A stretch of DNA of 21,327 nucleotides. Origin: an uncultured delta proteobacterium (GTDB taxonomy: Bacteria; Desulfobacterota; Syntrophobacteria; BM002). The stretch covers positions 1-21,327 of the forward strand of contig CAVQGX010000048.1 of NCBI GenBank assembly GCA_963712115.1, read 5' to 3'. The position numbers and the translations under genes were made by a program. Below, piece after piece: positions 2,858-21,327 of the stretch. Numbering within the stretch: the first letter of the stretch is position 1; each line of letters opens with the position of its first letter. Under the pieces are notes generated by a model, which was not told the DNA's origin, did no database searches, and worked only from the letters and a program-made list of their open reading frames with translations.

Positions 2858-3068
2858 AGTATGCCTTCGATCTTTAATCCTACCCTTTTTCCCCTTAAAT
2901 AATCTAATACTCTGGAGCCGGATATTTCATTACAGGTCCTGAAATCTGCTTCTTCCCCGCATAGCCGGATGTTCCACGGGCCAGGTTAAAGTTAAATCGC
3001 TTTGTTGATAAAGATGCGAGCTGTTTTCGAGTACTGGAGTATTTTGATGCTTGAGTAGCTAAAGATTC

Positions 3069-3202
3069 CAAATAAATCACAATGACCAACATTTAAAATC
3101 CCAAACTTTTGCATATTTATAAAATTATTCGAAATTTGTTTTGGTCATTGAAAATTGGAATTTAGGATTTGTTTGTAATTTGGTGCTTGGGATTTGGGAT
3201 TT
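3069..3202 (+). repeat. Imperfect palindromic intergenic repeat with ~7-nt periodicity (copy 1)
   Basis: CAAATAAATCACAATGACCAA...GTTTTGGTCATTG...TTGGGATTTGGGATTT. Aligns nearly end to end with the reverse complement of 4882-5018. Confidence 0.85.
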
Positions 3203-3827: not shown

Positions 3828-4856
3828 TTACAAAAACGATTCTACTTGTGCTGCCATTGGGAGGAGGCCGAAGATTCCCCCTGTATGGATAAATACGATT
3901 CTATCACCAAACACTTCCGGGTTCCGCTTCAGTTCCTGGGTCATTCCGTAAAAAGCTTTGCCAGTGTAGACCGGATCAAGAATTATACCTTCAGTGCGTG
4001 CCACTTCCACAAGAAGAGATAGCACCTGAAAACTTGCTTTGCCGTATCCCTCTCCCACATAGCCGTCGACTATGTGGATATCTTCTTGGGCGGAAAATGG
4101 GATTTCCAGTTTGTAGTTCGTTATGGCGGCATTGCAGATTTCACCTACCACGTCCATGAAATAATTCCTATCGTTGCAAACATTAATTCCTACGACCTGA
4201 GCTTCTAGTCCAACCAACCTTACTCCTAAAACAAGCCCGGCGGTAGTACCCCCGGAACCTGTAGCATGAATGATGGTCGTAGACCTGTCATTGTTGCCCA
4301 GGAGATCCTCTAGATCTTTAGCCAGCTCCTCCACCGCACGGACATAACCCCAGGCGCCCAGTACGTTGGAGCCCCCTTCGGGTATAACGTAAGGGGTTTT
4401 CCCCGACCTTCGAAGCGATTCCGCTTCACGCTCAAGCATTTCAGTGCGGCGGCCGTACTCCTCAAAGGTGAGCCAGACAATCTCTGCCCCAACCAGCCGG
4501 TCGAGTAATATATTTCCTTCGGCGGGCGGCGGATTCGCCGGATTACGGGTCCGGAGGAGTAACCGCGCCTCGAGTCCCAACTTAGCAGCGGCGATTGCCG
4601 TTGCCCTAGCGTGGTTCGACTGCGCAGCCCCACATGTCAATACTGTGTCGCTACCTTTCGCCAGAGCATCGGCAAGGAGGAATTCAAGCTTTCTCACTTT
4701 ATTGCCCGTAAGTTCAGCGCCCGTGAGATCATCTCGTTTGACGTACACTTCGACGCCTAATCTGTCGCTCAATCTTGAGAGGGGCTCGAGGGGCGTAGGA
4801 GTCCGGGCCAAATCTAAACGGGCGGGGTAGGGGATTTTTCGCGTTTTTTTGTTCAT
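3828..4856 (-). CDS. dcyD: D-cysteine desulfhydrase / ACC-deaminase-family PLP enzyme
   Basis: [24 protein letters not shown] (PLP lysine), [39 protein letters not shown]. Substrate is not proven. Confidence 0.9.
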
Positions 4857-4881: not shown

Positions 4882-5018
4882 AAATCCCAATTCCCAAGCA
4901 TCAAACTACAAATAAATTCCTAAATTCCAAATTCCAATAACCAAAACAGATTTGGAACGCCTTTATAAATATGAGTAAAAGTTTGGGATTTTAAATTTTG
5001 GTCATTGTGATTTATTTG
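4882..5018 (-). repeat. Imperfect palindromic intergenic repeat (copy 2, inverted relative to copy 1)
   Basis: Its reverse complement reads CAAATAAATCACAATGACCAAAATTTAAAATCCCAAACTTTT...TGCTTGGGAATTGGGATTT, matching 3069-3202. Confidence 0.85.
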
Positions 5019-5213
5019 TGATTTGTAATTTGAAATTTCCAATACCCGAGTACCCAAATAAAATTATATCTTAACCCCACGGGTGGTCTTTGTTAAAATG
5101 ATGATTATCTAGACTGTTTATGCCAATCTAGATAAAGCGCTGGCAGAACTAGAGTAACATAATTCAGCAAGGTGGCACACACCAGGGCCGAAATTGGAAG
5201 AAGGAGAAGAGAG

Positions 5214-12400: not shown

Positions 12401-12526
12401 TGGAAGCACAAGTTTGATCTTCGACCATATTGGAAAGCCGACAAGGAAGCAAGAAACGGGAAGTTGAATATCTGGTCACAAGAGAATTATGTTTATCCGA
12501 AGGAGTGGAGGAAGGGGAAGCGTAGA
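12401..12526 (+). pseudogene. 3' remnant of a thermonuclease (SNase-like) gene
   Basis: Translates as WKHKFDLRPYWKADKEARNGKLNIWSQENYVYPKEWRKGKRR, matching the SNase C-terminal pattern A..EAR..K..IW......P.EWR. No start or catalytic half. Confidence 0.6.
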
Positions 12527-12530
12527 AAGA

Positions 12531-12590
12531 CAACTATATTTTGTGAGAGAGTAAATTTAAGCGGAGTGTGAATTAATGGATGTAATCCAC
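12531..12590 (+). repeat. Composite box + dif-like site, copy A (interrupted by the IS1111-type element; continues at 13882)
   Basis: CTATATTTTG 12534-12543, 22 bp, GTGTGAATTAA-TGGATG-TAATCCAC|TTT from 12566. Confidence 0.8.
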
Positions 12591-12605
12591 ACCTATGAAA
12601 AAGCT

Positions 12606-12776
12606 GTTTGTCAAGTCAAAGATCTCTGTAACTGCCCGCTTGTAACCACGATATTGGGCTCATCGCCAAACACCTATCCGTGTTCACTCAAAGATGTCAC
12701 ACTATCATGTATGTGATAAACGGCGTCCCAATCACTTTCTCGGCCTCACCTTTTGTGGGCCATGTGGATTAACGGG
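12606..12776 (-). ncRNA. Bridge/seekRNA candidate of the IS1111-type element
   Basis: Two consecutive stem-closed internal loops on the minus strand, carrying TAATCCAC + GAAAGTG (target flanks) and ATCACA + ATAGGTGT (circle junction). Exact RNA ends are unknown. Confidence 0.8.
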
Positions 12777-13793
12777 TTACGCACATACAGGATAGGTCTC
12801 CATGTAAGGTGTTTGGTTTTTCCAAACGTAGAAAGCGTACTGCAAGATCTTATGGGCTGTGGCCACAATGGCCTTTTGATAGCCCGCCTTGACGATTCTT
12901 CTCCGGAAGAAAACACGCAAGCGGCAATTTTGCATTCTGGCTGCAGCCTGGGCAGCTTCGACCAGGGCGGTGCGCAGGTAGCGGGATCCTTGTTTGGTTA
13001 TCCTGCCCCTTTTCTCTTTGCCAGCACTGGCATCTAAACAAGGCACCAGACCAGCGTAAGAAGCCAGGTTCCGATATGAGCGAAAGCGGGAGATATCGTC
13101 TACCTCCGCTACAATGAACATGGCTGTGATAGGTCCAATGCCAGGGATAGTCATAAGAAGCTGGGCTGTATGGTTTTCCTTTGCCAGGACACGGACTCTT
13201 TTGCTTAAAGGCTCAATCTGCTCTTGGAGCCCTTGATAAAGTGAAAGATAAGTCTCGACTTGTCGGCGGTGGTAATCTGGCAAGTCAATCTCTTTGATAT
13301 AGCTCAATCCCTGAATACCAAAAAGATCGCTAAAAGGACTTCTGAAATTATTCTTCATCAGCAGCATATGAATACGGTTCTTCATGCGGGTGGCATCTCG
13401 AACCAATCTGCTTCTATGACGAAGTAGTTCCTTGAGTTTGCGTGTCTCAAGGCTGCTTACATGAACGGTAGAGATCAAATCATCCCTTAGAAGCTGAGCC
13501 AGCATATGAGAGTCTATCTTGTCGTTTTTGATCTTGGCCGAAGCAATGGCCTTGGTCTTCACTGGATTGGAGATCGCAACCTCAAAACCTTCTCCCGTAA
13601 GAAGATCATACAGCCAGTACCACGATGACATAGATTCAATGACGATTTTGCTCTCTTTGTCTAGGGTCGCAAAGTAAGCCAAAATGTCCTCTTCTACATT
13701 CTGCAGGTTGGATCGGGTGACGATCTTTCCATCTTCATCGATAGTAGTAATAAAAGATGTTTTCTTGTGTAAATCAATCCCAGTATAATACAT
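12777..13793 (-). CDS. IS110-family DEDD transposase/recombinase
   Basis: GIDLHK, IES, KNDKIDS (DEDD), IPGIGP, YAGLVP...ASAG (catalytic Ser region), ITKQGSRYLR. SD AAGGAGG. Confidence 0.97.
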   Translation of the reverse strand: MYYTGIDLHKKTSFITTIDEDGKIVTRSNLQNVEEDILAYFATLDKESKIVIESMSSWYWLYDLLTGEGFEVAISNPVKTKAIASAKIKNDKIDSHMLAQLLRDDLISTVHVSSLETRKLKELLRHRSRLVRDATRMKNRIHMLLMKNNFRSPFSDLFGIQGLSYIKEIDLPDYHRRQVETYLSLYQGLQEQIEPLSKRVRVLAKENHTAQLLMTIPGIGPITAMFIVAEVDDISRFRSYRNLASYAGLVPCLDASAGKEKRGRITKQGSRYLRTALVEAAQAAARMQNCRLRVFFRRRIVKAGYQKAIVATAHKILQYAFYVWKNQTPYMETYPVCA

Positions 13794-13981
13794 GGTGGCT
13801 ACCTCCTTTGTTTTGGGTTTCCCTCAAAGACCCCTTGTATAATACAAGGCCTCGAAGGAGGTAGCTTTTTCATATGATCACTTTCACAGTTCTCGAGATC
13901 AGTTTACCTTACTCATCATTAGTTAAGATCGCTCTCTCCTATTCAACCATCGAGTTTTTGCCAAAAAAAAGCTTCTCTCCC

Positions 13982-14010
13982 TTGACACTCATTGATTTTT
14001 AGATAATAAT
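13982..14010 (+). promoter_or_regulatory. Sigma-70 promoter candidate for the PKD gene
   Basis: TTGACA-17 nt-AATAAT, about 150 bp upstream of the CDS. Confidence 0.4.
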
Positions 14011-14156
14011 TTAAGAAGGTTATGTGCAAATTTCTGCTTACTTTTGACAGATAATTACACAAGTCACATTCCTGCGCTCTAATGCCCTCGATTTCAGATC
14101 ACTCTGTAATCTCAGAATAGGTGCTGAATATCTAACCAGTTGAATAAAAAACAACT

Positions 14157-16337
14157 ATGGTTATGTTGATGAAAACACGTTTCTTAACCACTTTCCTCTT
14201 TATTTTTCTCTTCCATACTTTTTCAGCCTCACAAGTTTTCGCAAAGGCTAAGGCAGGACGAGACCAAACCGTGGAAGAGGGTGACACGGTAATTTTGGAT
14301 GGATCTACATCGTATCTTAAAGGTGGCATTGACACTTATCAGTGGCAACAGACGGGCGGAAGCCCGACAGTGGTTCTAATAGGGGCTAATTCGGCTCATG
14401 CTAGTTTCGTTGCCCCAGATGTTGGAGTTGGTGGGACATTACTAACTTTTCAACTAACTGTCAGCAATGGTTCTGGGAAGTCTGATAAAGATACCACTAG
14501 GGTCCGTGTACTACATAGTAACGATCCGCCCATAGCAGATTCCGGCGATGACCAGACAGTGGACGAAGAAACCACAGTTACCCTGGATGGATCCAATTCT
14601 TATGATCCGGATCCTGGCGACAGCATTACTTATAAATGGGAGCAGATAGGGGGAAGCTCGACAGTAGAGTTGACTGGTGCTAATTCAGCGAAGGCAAGCT
14701 TTACTGCACCTAATGTTCTTAACGACACAAAACTGGACTTCCAGTTAACCGTCACTGATAGTTCAGGTTCCTCCGATACGGATAGAACTTCTGTGAATGT
14801 GCGAGGAGATAACGATCCTCCAATTGCAGAGGCAGGTCCGAATCAGAATGTAAATGAAGGCAGTCTTGTTATTTTGAATGGATCCAATTCTTATGATTCG
14901 GACCTTGGTGATACCATCACTTACCAGTGGATACAGACTGGTGGGAACCCGACTGTTACGCTGAACGGAGCAAATACAGCCACCCCTAGTTTTACCGCTC
15001 CAAATGTTAGAGTAGAAGGAGCATCGTTAACTTTCAAGTTGACAGTGACTGATTTCGGCAGGTTGGAAGATAGCGATACTACAGTTGTAAATGTAAGCTT
15101 CGTGAACCAACCGCCTATAGCTGATGCTGGTCCAAATCAGACGATGGGGGAGGAGACTGAGGTTACTCTGGACGGATCCAATTCCAGTGATCCGGACCAA
15201 GGCGATGGCATTAAATCTTATCGGTGGAGGCAAACAGCTGGATCTGAAGTAAAATTGTCTGACGACAGGGCGGTCAAATCCACCTTTAAGGCCCCGAATG
15301 TGGTAGGTAGCAGATCACTTACATTGGAATTAACGGTTACCGATTTTGGGGGATTGCAATCTTCAGATACTACGATTGTCAATGTGACCGGAGACAATGA
15401 TCCTCCCACGGCAGATGCGGGTCCTGATCAAACGATGGGGGAGCAGACTGAGGTTACTTTGGACGGATCCAATTCCAGTGATCCGGATGATGGAATCAAA
15501 TCTTATCGGTGGAGGCAAACAGCTGGACCTCTGGTCACTTTGTCTAATCCTCAGGCCAAGAAACCCACCTTTAAGGCTCCGAATGTGGTAGGTAGCAGAT
15601 CACTTACATTCGAATTAACGGTTACCGATTTTGGGGGATTGCAATCTTCAGATACTACGATTGTCAATGTGACCGGAGACAATGATCCTCCCACGGCCAA
15701 AGCAGGAATTGATCAGACGGTCGAAGAAAATACTATAGTTGTCCTAGACGGCTCCACTTCATTTGATCCGGATGGCGGCATTAAGTCCTATCAGTGGGAA
15801 CAAATAGCCGGACCAGCGGTAACCTTGTCCGACCCGACTGTAGCTCAACCTAGCTTTACGGTTCCGAATGTTGGAGCAGATGGAGTATCACTAACCTTCG
15901 AGATGACCATAACGGATGTAGACGGTTTGCAGTCAGCGGATACTGTGATTGTAAATGTCACAGGGGATAATGATCCTCCCGCAGCAAATGCTGGAATTGA
16001 TCAGACGGTGCTGGAGAAAGGTACAGTCACTTTAGACGGCTCCACTTCATTTGATCCGGATGACGGCATTGCATCATATCGGTGGAAACAGGTAGCAGGA
16101 CCCTCGGTCACCCTTTCCGATCCCACAGAGGATCGACCGACCTTTGAGGCTCCAAGTTTTGATGACAGTGGTGACCAACCACTAATCTTTGAGTTGATAG
16201 TTACAGATAATGGCGGTTTGCAGTCTAGTGATTCAACAACTGTTTCGGTCTCAAATTATGAGAAAGATAACCCGGGCGCATCGGGAGGCGGTTGTTTTAT
16301 CGACACCGCAGCCTACGGGTTCCGTAGGGCAAAATAG
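14157..16337 (+). CDS. Secreted/surface protein with seven tandem PKD/REJ-like Ig domains and a C-terminal GGGCFI motif
   Basis: Signal peptide; seven repeats of AxAGxDQTV...LDGSxSxD...YxWxQ...FxAP...LTVTD; ends GASGGGCFIDTAAYG (CFI-box-CTERM-like). Confidence 0.9.
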   Translation: MVMLMKTRFLTTFLFIFLFHTFSASQVFAKAKAGRDQTVEEGDTVILDGSTSYLKGGIDTYQWQQTGGSPTVVLIGANSAHASFVAPDVGVGGTLLTFQLTVSNGSGKSDKDTTRVRVLHSNDPPIADSGDDQTVDEETTVTLDGSNSYDPDPGDSITYKWEQIGGSSTVELTGANSAKASFTAPNVLNDTKLDFQLTVTDSSGSSDTDRTSVNVRGDNDPPIAEAGPNQNVNEGSLVILNGSNSYDSDLGDTITYQWIQTGGNPTVTLNGANTATPSFTAPNVRVEGASLTFKLTVTDFGRLEDSDTTVVNVSFVNQPPIADAGPNQTMGEETEVTLDGSNSSDPDQGDGIKSYRWRQTAGSEVKLSDDRAVKSTFKAPNVVGSRSLTLELTVTDFGGLQSSDTTIVNVTGDNDPPTADAGPDQTMGEQTEVTLDGSNSSDPDDGIKSYRWRQTAGPLVTLSNPQAKKPTFKAPNVVGSRSLTFELTVTDFGGLQSSDTTIVNVTGDNDPPTAKAGIDQTVEENTIVVLDGSTSFDPDGGIKSYQWEQIAGPAVTLSDPTVAQPSFTVPNVGADGVSLTFEMTITDVDGLQSADTVIVNVTGDNDPPAANAGIDQTVLEKGTVTLDGSTSFDPDDGIASYRWKQVAGPSVTLSDPTEDRPTFEAPSFDDSGDQPLIFELIVTDNGGLQSSDSTTVSVSNYEKDNPGASGGGCFIDTAAYGFRRAK

Positions 16338-16375
16338 TTTGTGATAGGAAAAAGTTGATCGGGGCGGAATTTTAG

Positions 16376-16404
16376 AAAGGCAAGACATTGGTCTTGCCTT
16401 TTTT
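16376..16404 (+). terminator. Rho-independent terminator
   Basis: AAAGGCAAGAC-ATTG-GTCTTGCCTTT-TTT after the PKD gene. Confidence 0.85.
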
Positions 16405-16455
16405 GCTTTACCATCTGAAGTTTCTGCTGGTCTGCTTAAACTGTGCATACTTTAA

Positions 16456-16991
16456 CTTGAAAATTCCCCGCAGCTTGCTGCGGGGTCTCTCCCTGTGCTA
16501 ATCAGGGAGTATGTCAGATGATACAGTAAGCAAAGGTTACCATTGCGCTTGGCAAATTCACTATCACATCGTATTTCCGGTGAAATACCGCAAAGCATTG
16601 TTGGACTTGGAAGTGGTGGAAATCATTGTAGAGACGGCTGAAGGTATTGCTGAGAGGTATGCCATTGAGATGGAAGCCATTGGTTGTGACAAAGAACATA
16701 TACACCTGCTATGTGGTGCCCATCCAAAGATAGCACCCGGTAGGATTGTTCAGATATTCAAAAGTATCACGGCACGCGAAATATTTCGACGTAAGCCATC
16801 AGTGAAAAAGGAGCTCTGGGGTGGCGAGTTTTGGACAGACGGCTACTATGTTGCAACAGTTGGTGAAAGGGCCAACTGGGATACAGTAGAAAAGTACATC
16901 AAGAGCCACGGTAGACCCAAAGCCGATCTCAAACAACTCAAACTGTTCGAATAAGGTTTGATACCCTGCAGCTTGCTGCAGGGTCATTCAT
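16456..16991 (+). mobile_element. IS200-type element (tnpA only)
   Basis: Subterminal hairpins CCCCGCAGC-TT-GCTGCGGGG (16466-16485) and ACCCTGCAGC-TT-GCTGCAGGGT (16963-16984). Right end probably TCAT at 16991 with guide GATA, by analogy with IS608 pairing rules. Left end uncertain by several bases. Confidence 0.88.
16511..16954 (+). CDS. tnpA: IS200/IS605 Y1 (HUH) transposase
   Basis: YHIVFPVKYRK, EHIHLL (HUH), KSITAR, LWGGEFWTDGYYVATVG, KYI (catalytic Tyr). Confidence 0.97.
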   Translation: MSDDTVSKGYHCAWQIHYHIVFPVKYRKALLDLEVVEIIVETAEGIAERYAIEMEAIGCDKEHIHLLCGAHPKIAPGRIVQIFKSITAREIFRRKPSVKKELWGGEFWTDGYYVATVGERANWDTVEKYIKSHGRPKADLKQLKLFE

Positions 16992-17041
16992 TCTAAACTT
17001 TTGTATTCTCACATTTAGGCACCACATCTAGGGTAAAGCGA

Positions 17042-17220
17042 TCACTTTTTTCTCTTCTTCCTCCTAAACTCCCAAGGCGATATGCGATCAGGATCAGCCC
17101 ACAATCCTCGCTTGTCCATCCTGGCCCCTATCTGCAAGCCCTTCCAAGTCTCACAAATGGGATGGTGGCAATGCTTCCAATATACCCACGCCAGACCAGC
17201 ATTGAGCAGTTTTTCTCTTT
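17042..17220 (-). pseudogene. 3' remnant of a thermonuclease (SNase-like) gene
   Basis: LLNAGLAWVY...C..W..LQ..AR..KRGLWADP..ISPWEFR is the SNase C-terminal half. The DGDT and DRYGR catalytic parts are not found upstream. Confidence 0.8.
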
Positions 17221-17316
17221 TTCGTAATACCCATCCTGGCATCAATATTGCCGTACTATTCTACGTATAGGATTTCAATAATGGAATACAACCCTTCTAA
17301 CACAAGGGAGGTTGTT

Positions 17317-17487
17317 ATGGTTCAGCCAGGTGCTATGGTTGCCGCAATTATTGGTGTAGCAAAAGGGGCAAAAAAAATGGTGGAAGCGGACCGCATACAT
17401 CTAGAGAGACTTAAAACTGACCCTGAGTACCGTGAGGCAGTTGAAAGGAAGAGGAAAGAGCTGAAAGAGAAATCGAATAAAGAATAG
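17317..17487 (+). CDS. Small hypothetical protein (56 aa)
   Basis: Strong SD AAGGGAGG before ATG 17317; hydrophobic N-terminus then a charged helical tail. Confidence 0.6.
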   Translation: MVQPGAMVAAIIGVAKGAKKMVEADRIHLERLKTDPEYREAVERKRKELKEKSNKE

Positions 17488-17529
17488 CAAAAGGCAAGAG
17501 AAACCAGCATATGTTACCTTGCATGGCAA

Positions 17530-17559
17530 TTGACACACAAGGTTCGCCCATCCTATACT
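17530..17559 (+). promoter_or_regulatory. Sigma-70 promoter candidate
   Basis: TTGACA-18 nt-TATACT upstream of the methyltransferase locus. Confidence 0.5.
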
Positions 17560-17703
17560 TCTTCCAATCGAAAGGGAGTTCTTATCAGTATTTTAACCCC
17601 GTCAGGGTCTAAGGAATTTGCGATTGAAAGTGTTGAGTGACGCGTCTCACCTGATTGCCAACTCTGCATCTTCTCGCGTATACAGAAAATACAGGTGGAA
17701 AAG

Positions 17704-18759
17704 ATGATGAAACAGCTCTTAAAAGAAGTCCTTCCTCCGTCAGCAATCGGCTGGCTCCAACGATTGAAGCTCAATTATTCTTTATCCCGTCGATACAAGC
17801 GAATGCCGTTTGAAATCGGCGATATTCTACCAGGATCTTTTAAGACGACCTAGGAGTCTGTCGGAGTACCTCTTTATTGGACACTTGGTGGTCATCGTGG
17901 CCCTAATGGGACCCTAAAACGGCGAATGGAGTGGTCAACGTTAGTCAGAATGCCAGTGCGACTGAACCTTGCGTCCCTATTTTTCCATTGAGAGCTAGTT
18001 AGTCCGACACACTCCTAGGCTGATCTTGAGGAAAAACACTCACCTGAGTTTAAAAAAATTATGGCTAAAATGGTGAGCTTCCTCGGCGCAGGTCCGATTG
18101 GCCCCAACAAGTATTGGGAATACCCGTGGGTCATTAAAAACCTAGATTTAAAACCGGGCATGACTTTTCTAGATGCCGGGTGTGGCCGTGCCCCGATTCA
18201 ATATTTTTTGGCTGACCTAGGAATTCGGGTCAGTGGAATTGACCCAGAGGAAAACGTAGCTTGGCATGGAATTGACCGAAGATTGGCTAGAAAATTTTCT
18301 TTGGATATCGACTACCGAGTAGAGGGGATGGAGAAGATAAGTTATCCGGACGAGTTCTTCGATCGAGTCGCCTCCGTTTCTGTACTTAAGCACTGTCGTG
18401 CGAAGCCAGTTAAAAAAGAGTGGACTGTTCCTCAGAATGCTGAAGATCGAAAACTTCACGGCAAAATGATTCAGGAAATGGCCCGCGTGCTTAAGAATGG
18501 CGGGCTCCTCATAATCACACTCGATATTATCTTCCCGAAAAATGGAGCGATCTTAGAGGCCAATATCGACGTTAAAAACCTCATCGACTGCGGCAAAGCT
18601 GATGGCCTTGACCTGTTGGGTTTTGAGGGGCCCGAAGCGTATTACGGATACGAGGGTTTTGATATCCATACTCTCGAAAAACGACCGGGGCTTGATATCC
18701 AGGATTACGAAGGAATCGTGGGTACCTCTTTGGGCTTGGTGTTTAAGAAGTTGCCTTAA
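17704..18759 (+). pseudogene. Class I SAM-dependent methyltransferase with its 5' part interrupted by a MITE (catalytic part 18061-18759 intact)
   Basis: WEYPW, FLDAGCG, YPDEFFDRV, EMARVLKNGGLL. The upstream 49-codon ORF MMKQLLKEVLPP...GSFKTT (17704-17853) is in frame with the downstream part once the MITE is removed. Confidence 0.75.
17850..18018. mobile_element. MITE, 161 bp, with CTAG direct repeats
   Basis: TIRs GAGTCTGTCGGAGTA (17854-17868) and TAGTCCGACACACTC (18000-18014), 13/15 matching. CTAG on both sides; no transposase. Confidence 0.85.
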
Positions 18760-18988
18760 GCAACTTTCCGCTCTTCAGACTGTGTCTTAGGAAGCGATAT
18801 CTCAAAGGTAGTATGAGGGGTGCCAGAGGGAATCTCGAAGTGACCGCCATGATCGAGAACAACTCTTCGTGAGATACTCAGACCCAGCCCCGTGCCTTTT
18901 CCTACTCTCTTAGTCGTAAAAAACGGCTGCAAGAAGGACAGTTACCTGATGAGGTTATTGATAAAGTGCTGCATTGGTTGAAAGAGAT

Positions 18989-19120
18989 GTGGCACAAACT
19001 CAGAGAACCCCCCTTACACCTTTTAAATGCCCCAAGTGCAAACTCACCATCATGGCTATACCAGATGACAAAGTGTGTCCTGTCTGCGGGAGTTCGTTGC
19101 AGCAACTTGTGAAGCGTTGA
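18989..19120 (+). CDS. Small zinc-ribbon protein (43 aa)
   Basis: GTG start; MAQTQRTPLTPFKCPKCKLTIMAIPDDKVCPVCGSSLQQLVKR with CPKC and CPVCG. Shorter than any ORF in the supplied track. Confidence 0.6.
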   Translation: MAQTQRTPLTPFKCPKCKLTIMAIPDDKVCPVCGSSLQQLVKR

Positions 19121-19124
19121 AAGC

Positions 19125-19234
19125 CAACTATATTTTGTACCGACATGAAACTCAGCAAAGTGTAAATTAAGGGATGTTATGCAAAGTCTGATCACATCCC
19201 TTCCTGCTACCCACCTCACTTTCTCTGGTTGCCC
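19125..19234 (+). repeat. Composite box + dif-like site, copy B
   Basis: CTATATTTTG 19128-19137, 22 bp, GTGTAAATTAA-GGGATG-TTATGCAAAGT 19160-19187, tail CCTCACTTTCTCTGGTTGCCC. Confidence 0.85.
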
Positions 19235-19353
19235 ACAATTGGAATTTTATTTCTCAAAATATGACCTAAAATGCCTAGGCTTCCATACCTGGTTTTCAGC
19301 ATAATACCGGCTAAGCTATTATAGATAAACGAAAAACCAACCAGACTCCTGCC

Positions 19354-19368
19354 TGGCACAATTATTGT
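19354..19368 (+). promoter_or_regulatory. Sigma-54-like promoter candidate before the tRNA-like element
   Basis: TGGCAC-AATTA-TTGT (GT in place of GC at -12). Predicted start about 19380, just before the tRNA-like 5' end. Confidence 0.45.
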
Positions 19369-19386
19369 TTAGTCAAGATGCATTGT

Positions 19387-19464
19387 GGAGGCGAGACTCA
19401 GCAGTTGGGACAATAAAAGTTTGCGGTGCTGGGGTCGTGGGTTCGACTCCCACCGCCTCCACCA
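19387..19464 (+). ncRNA. tRNA-like RNA / degenerate tRNA gene
   Basis: 78 nt: acceptor stem GGAGGCG/CGCCTCC, discriminator A, encoded CCA, perfect T-arm GTGGG-TTCGACT-CCCAC. D and anticodon stems do not pair canonically. Confidence 0.7.
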
Positions 19465-19481
19465 AACAAGGAAAATGTTGA

Positions 19482-19769
19482 ATGATGCTCCCCTGCTCAC
19501 AATGTAGCAAGATATGTTTTCTAGATGACTTCCATGAGATTGACTACTCTGCTGAGGGATTCTCTGCTTTCTGCAGCAAGGAGTGCAAGGATAATTGGTA
19601 CTCAAGAGTACCTCCAGAGTATGATTCTGACTGCACTTGTGAGGGGTGCAAAAGGACACTCGGGCAGGGAAAATCACCTGTTGAATTTTGGTCCTATACA
19701 GAACCTTATTATTTCTGTGGTCAAATGTGCAGAGATAAGTGGTTACTGGGCATTTCGGATAACCTGTAG
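19482..19769 (+). CDS. Small Cys-rich protein with two tandem TRASH/FCS-like metal-binding motifs
   Basis: CSQC...FCSKECKDNW and CEGC...FCGQMCRDKW. Confidence 0.7.
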   Translation: MMLPCSQCSKICFLDDFHEIDYSAEGFSAFCSKECKDNWYSRVPPEYDSDCTCEGCKRTLGQGKSPVEFWSYTEPYYFCGQMCRDKWLLGISDNL

Positions 19770-19803
19770 CCAAATTCGAATCACCTCTGAGATAGGAAAT
19801 AAT

Positions 19804-19980
19804 TTGAGAGCAAACCGAGGCATTCGGGCATTAATAAAGATTTACAAGAATATATTCCGCATTCCAGAGAACCTTAATCACTACTTAGAGAAAGACCACA
19901 GAGCCGCAGAAAGGAAATTCCTGAAGCATGCGCTAGAATAGCGCAGAATCGAAAACGAAGAAGAACTTTTCGAAGAATGA
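19804..19980 (+). pseudogene. Small hypothetical gene with an internal amber codon at 19939-19941
   Basis: TTG start after ATAGGA; MRANRGIRALIKIYKNIFRIPENLNHYLEKDHRAAERKFLKHALE*RRIENEEELFEE*. The final TGA overlaps the next ATG (ATGA). Confidence 0.45.
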
Positions 19981-20066
19981 TACCTTCGCCTACTCCAAAA
20001 GATTTAACTGTCATGATTTTCCTCGCTTTTGCCTGGTGGTTATTGTTAGTCGGGATAGTCCTCTAA
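19977..20066 (+). CDS. Possible 29-aa single-TM peptide
   Basis: MIPSPTPKDLTVMIFLAFAWWLLLVGIVL; ATGA overlap with the upstream frame. Confidence 0.35.
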   Translation: MIPSPTPKDLTVMIFLAFAWWLLLVGIVL

Positions 20067-20116
20067 ATGGCGCAGCAGTGAAAACAGATTAGGCACATAT
20101 TCATTTTTCAAAGAAC

Positions 20117-20290
20117 ATGAAAAATATTGCTTGCTACGTTCTATGGGGATTCCTCGTCCTTCTCCTCATTAGTTTTTCTACCGCACTTCTGGAAACATTA
20201 TTGCACGTCAGGATACACTATTACTTAATAAATACAGTTTTCGTCCTGGCCCTGGTAGCTCTGCACTACTTTAAATTTCGCAAGAGTTGA
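20117..20290 (+). CDS. Small two-TM membrane protein (57 aa)
   Basis: MKNIACYVLWGFLVLLLISFSTALLETLLHVRIHYYLINTVFVLALVALHYFKFRKS: two hydrophobic segments with basic ends; weak SD. Confidence 0.55.
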   Translation: MKNIACYVLWGFLVLLLISFSTALLETLLHVRIHYYLINTVFVLALVALHYFKFRKS

Positions 20291-20420
20291 ATACACATAC
20301 ACGGCCTTATCCATAAAATCCTCTCCACCTGGCTCTACCGGACTCACCCACCCAATTCCCTGAATACCTCGGCACTGAAATCAGCTCTTCTTTAATTTCT
20401 ATCATGGTTGCCTTAACCTC

Positions 20421-20515
20421 TGCCAATATCTTGTGTCAGAGTAAATTCCAGGATAGTGTGAATTAAGGGATGTAATGCAAAGTCTGCCCCCCCTCCATGC
20501 TGCCACCCCCACTTT
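20421..20515 (+). repeat. Composite box + dif-like site, copy C
   Basis: CAATATCTTG 20424-20433, 22 bp, GTGTGAATTAA-GGGATG-TAATGCAAAGT 20456-20483, tail GCTGCCACCCCCACTTT. Confidence 0.85.
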
Positions 20516-20528
20516 GAGTCAAGACCTA

Positions 20529-20544
20529 TGGCATAATTAGTGCA
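20529..20544 (+). promoter_or_regulatory. Sigma-54 (-24/-12) promoter candidate
   Basis: TGG-CATAATTAGT-GCA, about 45 bp upstream of the PilZ gene. Confidence 0.65.
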
Positions 20545-20586
20545 TCTCTGCTCCCCAAAAACAAATCAATCTGGGAGAAACGTAAG

Positions 20587-20970
20587 ATGCTTGGAAAACC
20601 TGGTATTAAATATCCAAAAGCTCCAGTTAAATGGTACGTTTCAGCGCAAGCTGGTAGTAAGGAAATTGCCGGAGTAACAAAGGAACTTAGTACACGCCAA
20701 GCGTATATTTGTTGCTCTGAACCATTACGCCTTAAAGAAGTTTTTGATTTGGTGATTGCTTCTCCTGAGCGTGACATACCGATCAAAGCAGAAGTCGTCT
20801 GGTCGAATAAATACGGATATGATGACCAAATTACGCCGCGTGGAATGGGTGTTCGCTTTGTAGAAATCTCTGAAGAAGACCGAAGACTCATTGCCGAAGT
20901 GGTAAACGAGCATGATCTAGTGAAGATTGCGGCTGATTATCTGGATACCTTGGAGACAGACAATAATTGA
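20587..20970 (+). CDS. PilZ domain protein (degenerate c-di-GMP motifs), paralog of 1418-1822
   Basis: SD GGGAG; AEVVWSNKYGYDDQITPRGMGVRF versus VEVVWTNIYGPDDDLTPRGMGVRF in the 1418 gene. Confidence 0.85.
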   Translation: MLGKPGIKYPKAPVKWYVSAQAGSKEIAGVTKELSTRQAYICCSEPLRLKEVFDLVIASPERDIPIKAEVVWSNKYGYDDQITPRGMGVRFVEISEEDRRLIAEVVNEHDLVKIAADYLDTLETDNN

Positions 20971-21105
20971 AAATTTGCGCACCAGTTGACCCTAAATCTG
21001 CAGTCCTCAAAATAACAACTGTATCTCAAAAGCGTCAGCTACACTTTTTACGTCCCTGGGCTCCAACGCGACCCCTACGGTCTGAGTTCGCTCTCGCTTG
21101 ACAGA

Positions 21106-21260
21106 TATCAATATCTTGTGCCAGATCAAATTCTCGCCGAGTGTGAATTAAGGGATGTAATATTAAGCCCGACTGAGATCCTTGGGAATTAAGCATTGTT
21201 CGATCTTATTTCAGCTCAAACCTGTCCGTACTGCCAACCTCACTTTCTCTGTGGTTGCCC
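21106..21260 (+). repeat. Composite box + dif-like site, copy D
   Basis: CAATATCTTG 21109-21118, 22 bp, GTGTGAATTAA-GGGATG-TAATATTAAGC 21141-21168, longer insert, tail CCTCACTTTCTCTGTGGTTGCCC. Confidence 0.85.
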
Positions 21261-21327
21261 GGAGTGCAGGGACCACATCAGACTTTTTTCCTATTTACAT
21301 AAGAATTGTTTTATAATAAAATAAGTA

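Follow-up and report, generated by a model that had tools for sequence, protein, structure and literature searches.

We analysed a window of 21,327 nucleotides, which is the whole contig C48 of a 70-contig, 4.9-Mb assembly (G000), a metagenome-assembled genome (MAG; 94.4% complete, 5.99% contamination) of an uncultured delta proteobacterium in Desulfobacterota. In the second half of the window a 62-nt repeat family is present in four copies (A to D, at 12525, 19119, 20415 and 21100, with 71-77% identity to the reference). Each copy contains a 19-nt core, AGTGTRAATTAAKGGATGT, beginning at 12565, 19159, 20455 and 21140, and all four carry an upstream box of the CAAYTATATYTTGTG type. A preliminary description of this DNA, made from the sequence alone, had already placed four direct copies with a shared upstream box here, and both points are confirmed. 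Between the copies lie gene modules, with genes for a surface protein, a methyltransferase and a PilZ-domain protein among their cargo. We call the repeats, together with a second type found in the same genome, T sites. Our reading, to which we give a probability of about one half, is that T sites are sites of trans-acting site-specific recombination, which shuffles chromosomal gene modules in an uncultured genus of Desulfobacterota related to sulfate reducers.

Anatomy, number and spread of the sites

As a degenerate 19-mer with at most 2 mismatches, the core matched 93 times in the 4.9-Mb assembly and the reversed control 0 times; the matches formed co-oriented clusters, and many lay at the ends of contigs or on short ones. 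Tallying the core pattern at ≤2 mismatches across G000 gave two types of site: T1, with the centre AGGGATG (n=91), and T2, with the centre AAGTATG (n=56). A profile scan of the genome and its relatives had been proposed in the preliminary description, which itself contained neither T2, nor the inverted pairs described below, nor the resemblance to repetitive extragenic palindromes (REPs) and bacterial interspersed mosaic elements (BIMEs).

The anatomy was read from 92 T1-pattern copies aligned in register, and conservation was counted over 90 T1 and 56 T2 sites. By symmetry the T1 core is an 11-7-11 element (AGTGTGAATTA / AGGGATG / TAATnCACAGT), a 29-nt imperfect palindrome, and the 11-6-11 layout suggested before has to be given up. 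The left arm AGTGTGAATTA and the 7-nt centre are near-invariant within each type. The right arm is weakly conserved and an imperfect inverse of the left arm, with the consensus TaATnyamAsT and the kept positions T.AT..A.A.T. About 31 nt upstream of the T1 core lies a box of the CAAnATnTTGTGCC type; T2 has the left arm of T1, usually with G at core position 7, and a related box of its own. The motif CAAN4TTR at the fixed position -31 was found in 27/91 T1 and 11/56 T2 sites against 3/147 control windows, and fits what we take to be the IHF consensus, which is a lead only. The CACTTT tail, described earlier as common to the copies, does exist, and marks one right-flank subfamily: it lies within 80 nt of the core in 17/91 T1 and 2/56 T2 sites, and a longer tail, CCTCACTTTCTC, was found at 10/91 T1 sites. 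Downstream of 23/91 T1 sites there is another right-flank module, a hairpin with an ATTACTCRWTC-like motif at its end.

At ≤1 mismatch a T1 18-mer was present in 16 of the 17 genus members other than G000, in the single sister-genus genome (1/1), and in 0/22 further relatives; the reversed control gave 0 everywhere. The sister genus retains both centres, the box and the inverted composite of T2 and T1. Two genomes that are single contigs, G002 and G013, have 31 and 17 sites. An exact 22-mer scan with one genome per species found at least 96 stretches; among the matches listed, nearly all were titled uncultured Desulfobacterota, Syntrophobacteria or Desulfobacteraceae MAGs, and a few were short contigs from bins of other phyla. 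No T site was found in the collections used for a viral contig scan and a plasmid BLAST.

Two further properties of the core were seen. Both T1 and T2 keep ATG followed by TAA across the putative crossover (centre ...ATG, right arm TAAT...), and the core has stop codons in 2/3 forward frames.

Neighbouring sites, cargo and breakpoints

The arrangement of the sites was studied in 110 adjacent pairs, each <12 kb apart. Direct T1-T1 pairs were the most frequent (35, at 130 nt to 10 kb), followed by T1 then inverted T2 (32, with 0.7-8.5 kb of cargo between) and inverted T2 then T1 (30, among them 21 at 53-54 or 108-111 nt). Direct T2-T2 pairs numbered 11, while same-type inverted pairs and direct T1/T2 pairs occurred once each. 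In total there were 62 inverted T1/T2 pairs, 32 around cargo and 30 around linkers between left units (the box side of the site), and 46 direct pairs. The short linkers sit between two left units, and the long T2/T1 doublet of 108-111 nt is centred on a terminator-like GCGGAG...CTCCGC T-run hairpin. It means that cargo has, in the manner of a cassette, a right arm at one end and a T1 left unit at the other, or else is bordered by the right arms of unlike sites. The largest open reading frame (ORF) has the direction of T1 in 24/30 T1-T1 segments and 24/29 T1-T2 segments, and the direction opposite to T2 in 8/9 T2-T2 segments.

Of 154 non-identical ORFs in the arrays with a length of ≥90 aa, all but the four shortest, hence 150, were searched for domains. 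Among them, 24 had PilZ, eight FHA, six IS110 transposase and four TPR domains, and receiver, cyclic nucleotide-binding (cNMP-binding), LuxR-type and cyclase domains were found three times each. This cargo, with PilZ in 24/150 together with FHA, TPR and cyclase, suggests that signalling by c-di-GMP and by other routes diversifies rapidly. No recurring recombinase family other than IS110 was found among the 150 ORFs. In a promoter and terminator scan the boxes did not coincide consistently with a predicted promoter (10 promoter-like sites, 14.2 expected).

We compared the 300-nt flanks of all 147 sites of G000 with each other. In 16 site pairs 60-300 nt of the right flank were common (the full 300 nt in nine) with ≤12 nt on the left, and in 66 pairs the left flank alone was shared, most of these sharing just the repeated composite of 73-131 nt and four the full 300 nt; another four pairs were alike in both flanks. 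In the alignments, left-arm and centre variants are linked to the left flank, and core positions 19-20 to the right flank. Two chimeras (C3_116808 with C28_12324, and C13_14642 with C60_8688) have a T1 or a T2 left unit joined to a shared right flank, putting the break between core positions 15 and 19, which fits a putative exchange point at the centre/right-arm junction ATG|TAAT. Among 12 within-genome pairs that are alike far to the left, four are plain duplicates, one is IS-related and seven are informative; four of the seven break at the core. Cassettes of the window also recur in a different species, G006, on separate contigs. Cassette B-C is carried by G006:C70 (query 58-1372, core to core, 89% identity, flanks unrelated) and cassette C-D by G006:C432 (query 1362-2062, core to core, 88%, outside DNA unrelated). 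The claim that the sites delimit exchangeable units is upheld by the flank homology that breaks at cores and by these two recurrences.

Two loci were compared in search of an empty state. For a composite in G013, both flanking genes were unlinked in the other genomes and the locus was rearranged, so the insertion boundary is unreadable. At the array locus on C31, G016 and G006 have a 433-nt J-domain-like gene where G000 has 6 kb, which is a replacement with no clean insertion. The C31 array region also holds a 185-nt miniature inverted-repeat transposable element (MITE; G000:C31:158500-158684) with inverted ends of about 30 nt (TAGCCCGGATATTTCATGAA), of which the genus genomes have dozens of copies at 91-97% identity.

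Recombinase candidates and alternative readings

There is no tyrosine recombinase on the window contig, as had been noted before: all 12 PF00589 matches in G000 lie elsewhere. No serine recombinase was found in G000. The single-contig relatives G002 and G013 have only two PF00589 genes each, which encode Xer-like proteins of ~298 and ~357 aa, and IS110 genes are absent from both. The Xer-like pair is present in 18/18 genus genomes (presence only) and represents the sole PF00589 genes of G002, G013, G016, G007, G001 and G003. Two PF00589 matches (E ≤1e-8) were counted in 7/18 genus genomes, one of those in G006 being not Xer-like, and G009 has the pair and a fragment. Therefore, the Xer-like pair are the only tyrosine recombinases that every site-bearing genome has.

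A dif-type site has an 11-bp XerC arm, a 6-bp centre and an 11-bp XerD arm. The dif of this genus is TCTGATAATGTATATTATGTAAACT, that is TCTGATAA-TGTATA-TTATGTAAACT. G000 has a single exact copy of it; among the 14 other genus genomes searched, 11 likewise have a single exact copy, and one more copy was found at 1 mismatch. The right-arm consensus of T1, TAATnTAAAGT, matches the XerD half TTATGTAAACT at 8/11 positions, and the two positions at which the right arm is no mirror image of the left arm, 24 and 26, bring it closer to the XerD half. The dif/Xer likeness proposed in the preliminary description stands in this arm and in the relatives whose only tyrosine recombinases are the Xer-like pair; it does not extend to the left arm, to the length of the centre or to dif itself, as given below, and judged by their sequence T sites would not be plain dif-type Xer sites.

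A second dif-like site, with the arms of dif and the centre TTAATC, was found at G000:C49:23175-23199 and G002:C1:280948-280972. In G002 it is inverted and 8.6 kb from dif, with genes for MurJ, LptE, LeuRS and a DsrC-like protein between. We rejected it as the edge of a mobile module, as it flanks housekeeping genes.

G000 has a true integron integrase at C27:2356-3300, which scores 486.9 bits to TIGR02249 (cut-off 265). Beside intI, at the contig start, are three classic attC-like repeats (C27:566 to C27:1711), whose sequence is unlike T sites. IntI was found in 3 of the 17 other genus members, and not in G002, G013, G011 and G018, which are single-contig genomes with T sites. Owing to this distribution and the different attC, we rejected IntI as the enzyme. 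The integron likeness that had been proposed holds by analogy, while the real integrase has a different attC and a sparse distribution. Three more candidates were set aside: a 411-aa integrase beside two arrays (C39, C11), present in only 4/18 genus genomes; the IS110-family enzyme as a general factor, missing in G002 and G013; and the long Y1 (HUH) proteins, not found in G000 and poorly conserved between species. Apart from the question of the enzyme, 5 of 9 attC-like matches in G000 have a T2 core of like orientation at a distance of 55-59 nt, and they stand at the 3' ends of differing cargo genes (T2 sites C27_118256, C31_156391, C13_18485, C42_183888 and C54_12954), and the pairing is also seen in G002. 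The integron attC and T2 systems appear to be linked at a fixed point.

In the recombination reading, a site would comprise the accessory box about 31 nt upstream, the invariant 11-nt left arm, the invariant 7-nt centre and the weak right arm. Exchange would occur at or beside the centre/right-arm junction, so that box, left arm and centre stay upstream and the right arm stays downstream. A direct T1-T1 unit would then behave as an integron cassette, a gene followed by a site, and cargo in an inverted T1/T2 pair as an Acinetobacter dif module or a cassette-exchange unit with two incompatible sites. Since the centre travels with the left flank, we infer that exchange is made by a protein on the right arm, which would be a putative XerD-like half-site with exchange on that side. 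The enzyme would be a tyrosine-type recombinase, for which elimination leaves the conserved XerC/XerD-like pair as candidate.

Several points weigh against this reading. The recombinase is named by elimination, which keeps the Xer role putative. The left arm matches the XerC half of dif at only 5/11 positions, the centre has 7 nt and not 6, and the canonical dif is a different, single-copy site. The genes mostly run in the direction of T1, and tyrosine recombination has no need of this. Only two chimeras locate the crossover within the core, and homologous recombination within 22-nt identity may have produced them. Gene content was expected to break at the site, and it does so at the cores in G006 and in the chimeras; however, the other three of the seven informative pairs lose identity 18-40 nt upstream, and one cassette orthologous between G000 and G006 has 18 nt between box and core replaced. 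The contamination of 5.99% means that some duplicates within G000 may be co-assembled strains. Metagenome contigs of four runs from four studies gave no trustworthy circle or deletion junction: the sides of the site-to-site joints are 20-31 nt long, so these joints speak neither for nor against excision. (The window's word share was 0.32-0.35 in 17 metagenome runs; the reading was confined to matching contigs of the four, and uncovered parts of the window carry no weight as evidence.) Lastly, the repeats look like REPs and BIMEs, being palindromes in >100 copies, with alternating types, fixed linkers and an IS110-family element that targets them.

This resemblance leads to the strongest alternative, which we consider doubtful. 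T sites would be palindromes of the REP/BIME/REPIN kind with two unit types, spread by a HUH nuclease (Y1 or like RAYT, the REP-associated tyrosine transposase) or kept for a structural or regulatory role, and the shuffling would be a by-product of single-strand cleavage or recombination at these repeats. As would be expected of such elements, the 147 sites are short extragenic imperfect palindromes of 29 nt, in two alternating types with fixed linkers, and 21 inverted T2/T1 doublets lie at 53-111 nt. The motif at -31 with its presumed IHF fit and the IS110-family element that targets the arms point the same way, as IS110-type elements also target REPs. Y1_Tnp genes occur in 16 of the 17 other genus genomes. 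REPs in alternating orientation and REP doublets are described in the available parts of PMC2817692, PMC3337134 and PMC3333891. The arms read TAATTCACA and TAATCCACA, one base off the DnaA-box consensus in the available part of PMC6006769, where Y1 proteins that have a DnaA-C-like domain but lack a known REP are also described; G002 has one Y1 protein with such a domain.

However, T sites differ from these palindromes in construction. The unit boundary cuts the palindrome, with its arms assorting with different flanks. The stem shows no compensatory covariation, and there is no sign of selection for a hairpin: T1 arm complementarity is 7.07/11 against 7.03 in shuffled pairings, with 664 of 2000 shuffles scoring at least as high. 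Conservation is highest in the centre, which would be the loop, and lowest in the right arm, which is degenerate. There is no GTAG-type foot and no cognate flanked RAYT; the window's Y1 gene is flanked by a different hairpin. Five of six Y1 loci examined have no T site within 2 kb, and only G018 L165 has a T1-like site, ~600 nt off. Between G002 and G013 the identity of the long Y1 proteins is only 42%, the site-richest genome, G000, has no close homologue, and long Y1 genes occur also in site-free genera, e.g. G020. Genes lie between the inverted partners (0.7-8.5 kb in 32 pairs) and 35 pairs form direct arrays, while to our knowledge BIMEs neither enclose genes nor form direct arrays.

The three other alternatives are unlikely even when taken together. 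The first of them, which is improbable, is that the inverted T2/T1 composite of 92 to 150 nt is a mobile MITE, with left units as its terminal inverted repeats and lone T1 sites as decayed halves. About ten composites are alike over 73-131 nt, with TA on both sides of the composite, isolated composites stand between ordinary genes in G013, and there are other true MITEs in these genomes. But the flanks of the composite are conserved inverted right arms, in which core position 27 is A and position 29 is T in 79/90 sites, and only 21/91 T1 sites are in a close doublet with an inverted T2, the others standing alone directly after stop codons. No matching transposase family recurs in the array ORFs (helix-turn-helix transposase-type domains in 3-4 of 150), and the empty-site search met a rearranged locus with no clean insertion.

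Still less probable is a transcribed RNA motif, either a CsrA-type GGA loop in a leader or trailer hairpin or an mRNA-stabilising stem-loop. T1 can be folded as an 11-bp stem with the loop AGGGAUG, which contains GGA, the sites are co-oriented with genes, and post-transcriptional control would suit a PilZ and signalling cargo. No T site, though, has an Rfam match at E ≤1, and the lack of covariation in the stem and of a consistent promoter at the boxes speaks against it. T2 has no GGA on either strand and is antisense to the genes, yet has a left/right asymmetry like that of T1, and each half of the hairpin is part of a different exchangeable unit.

An attC site has R''/L''...L'/R' boxes with outer AAC...GTT and a crossover at G|TT. 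It is hardly credible that T sites are unusual attC sites of a sedentary chromosomal integron, or of integrase-less attC clusters, recombined by IntI: G000 does have a true integrase, its arrays consist of co-oriented small genes each followed by a site, and the inverted T2/T1 composite might form a hairpin, mismatched at the centres, that resembles attC in its folded state, but the repeats beside intI are different and classic, T sites have no AAC...GTT boxes and a putative break at ATG|TAAT, and IntI occurs in 3/17 other genus members and in 0/4 single-contig site-bearing genomes.

Returning to recombination sites, we compared T sites with known systems. They are like integron cassettes in that short, mostly co-oriented, promoter-poor genes are each directly followed by a site, in that the putative crossover splits the site so that its last part joins the next cassette, and in that the order differs between relatives. 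They are unlike integrons in the missing AAC/GTT boxes, in the absence of IntI from most site-bearing genomes, the genome's own integron using other attC, in a conservation of sequence and not structure, and in the existence of an inverted second type. The sfx sites of the R64 shufflon, recombined by the tyrosine recombinase Rci, are asymmetric, with a conserved arm, a conserved 7-bp centre and a poor other arm, and T sites share these three features. The R64 inversions occur in one cluster beside rci, whereas T sites have no linked recombinase and their modules are exchanged, not only inverted.

The pdif sites of Acinetobacter plasmids are served by XerC/XerD. The dif modules of these plasmids, according to the available part of PMC13141974, are likewise bounded by short recombination sites with the recombinase not inside, have inverted neighbouring sites in two alternating kinds of module (arm A or arm B inside), and occur fused with direct sites. 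In that source the identity of the central spacer decides which sites react, and a module is replaced by two crossovers. Acinetobacter also has a dedicated site-targeting IS family (available part of PMC10132070), and T sites have their IS110-family element. Unlike the Acinetobacter modules, T sites are chromosomal, ~150 per genome, in uncultured Desulfobacterota, and are not copies of the host dif. Their centre has 7 nt by symmetry and only two sequences, fixed across two genera, and inverted neighbours nearly always differ in type. They have a conserved accessory box next to one of the arms, their direct arrays are as frequent as inverted pairs, and their dependence on Xer is putative.

T sites thus resemble integron cassettes and Acinetobacter dif modules, yet the site family itself is new, and no description of it was found in the available parts of the literature searched. 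A bolder version, which we hold tentatively, is that the system is a new kind of chromosomal gene shuffling with two mutually incompatible site classes, fixed across genera and placed so that unlike inverted sites enclose the cargo; it would be a natural cassette exchange with mostly second-messenger signalling cargo (PilZ), driven by neither IntI nor classical Xer. Candidate factors for it are a DnaA-C-fused HUH nuclease reading the DnaA-box-like arms, or XerD-only strand exchange. If the recombination reading is true, an uncultured Desulfobacterota lineage of sediment metagenomes would have, apart from integrons, a large system for exchanging chromosomal genes in modules, and the idea of dif modules would extend past Acinetobacter plasmids to natural cassette exchange with two incompatible site classes. 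T sites could serve as new orthogonal recombination sites in tools if recombination is confirmed.

Modules of the window

Features of the window around the four T1 copies
Feature	Position	Strand	Description
T1 copy A	12525..12589	+	box, linker, left arm, 7-nt centre ATGGATG, right-arm start; putative crossover 12582/12583
IS110-family element	12590..13878	-	1289 bp; transposase 12777-13793 (Pfam PF01548 and PF02371)
Displaced rest of copy A right flank	13879..13935	+	CACTTTCACAG hairpin module; resembles right-flank modules elsewhere
Module A-B	12583..19176	+	6.6 kb
PKD-repeat surface protein gene	14157-16337		cargo of module A-B
IS200-like Y1 transposase gene	16511-16954		cargo of module A-B; own flanking hairpins
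Methyltransferase gene	17695-18759		cargo of module A-B; split by the 165-bp MITE
MITE	17849-18013		165 bp; 23-nt inverted ends CCTAGGAGTCTGTCGGAGTACCT
Small Zn-ribbon-like ORF	18974-19120		cargo of module A-B; sub-threshold Pfam matches
T1 copy B	19119..19187	+	left unit and 29-nt core 19159-19187; putative crossover 19176/19177
Cassette B-C	19177..20472	+	tmRNA-like mini-gene and small ORFs 19482-19769, 20117-20290
tmRNA-like mini-gene	19387-19464	+	in cassette B-C; acceptor stem and T-arm only
T1 copy C	20415..20483	+	core 20455-20483; putative crossover 20472/20473
Cassette C-D	20473..21157	+	PilZ-domain gene 20587-20970 (PF07238)
T1 copy D	21100..21168	+	core 21140-21168; putative crossover 21157/21158
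Start of next module	21158..21327	+	right arm, hairpin module, CCTCACTTTCTC tail; continues past contig end

The IS110-family element interrupts the right arm of copy A and is a user of T1 sites as target, outside the system proper. All four of its copies in G000 abut a T1 core at the arm GTGTGRATTA: three (C36_19664, C41_2039 and C42_18344) lie at the left arm, and the window copy lies at the right arm in the opposite orientation. A copy A free of the insertion is seen in one metagenome contig, which joins 12589 to 13879 with one side of only 23 nt. Also at copy A, a start-less open frame reads into the core and ends at the TGA of the core. Near copy C, matches of metagenome contigs end at 20476 or begin at 20512.

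Among the small genes named in the preliminary description, the PilZ gene was verified by its domain. The supposed SNase stub is a 62-aa frame with no Pfam match, and the matches of the Zn-ribbon-like small ORF before copy B are all sub-threshold. The tRNA-like RNA is better described as a tmRNA-like mini-gene, with 46 bits to Rfam RF00023 against a gathering score of 47, and ARAGORN calls nothing there; 11 nt stand in for 294 internal positions of the RF00023 model. Its third acceptor pair is A-U, not G-U. Cassette B-C with this mini-gene is also present in G006, G011, G017 and G005 and on a second contig of G000 (C53).

The IS200-like Y1 gene of module A-B lies between two direct copies of a 25-nt hairpin, ATTCCCCGCAGCTTGCTGCGGGGTC (window 16463-16985), which is a repeat family separate from T1 and T2. 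The 165-bp MITE is missing from metagenome contigs of three runs (X2, X4 and X7; sides 69-255 nt), and is also present 3' of several T2 sites elsewhere, e.g. C60_2410 and C4_8698. Outside the array, at window positions 3060-3202 and 4882-5027, inverted repeats of 59-65 nt (73-83% complementary) surround an ORF of 342 aa at 3828-4856 on the minus strand.

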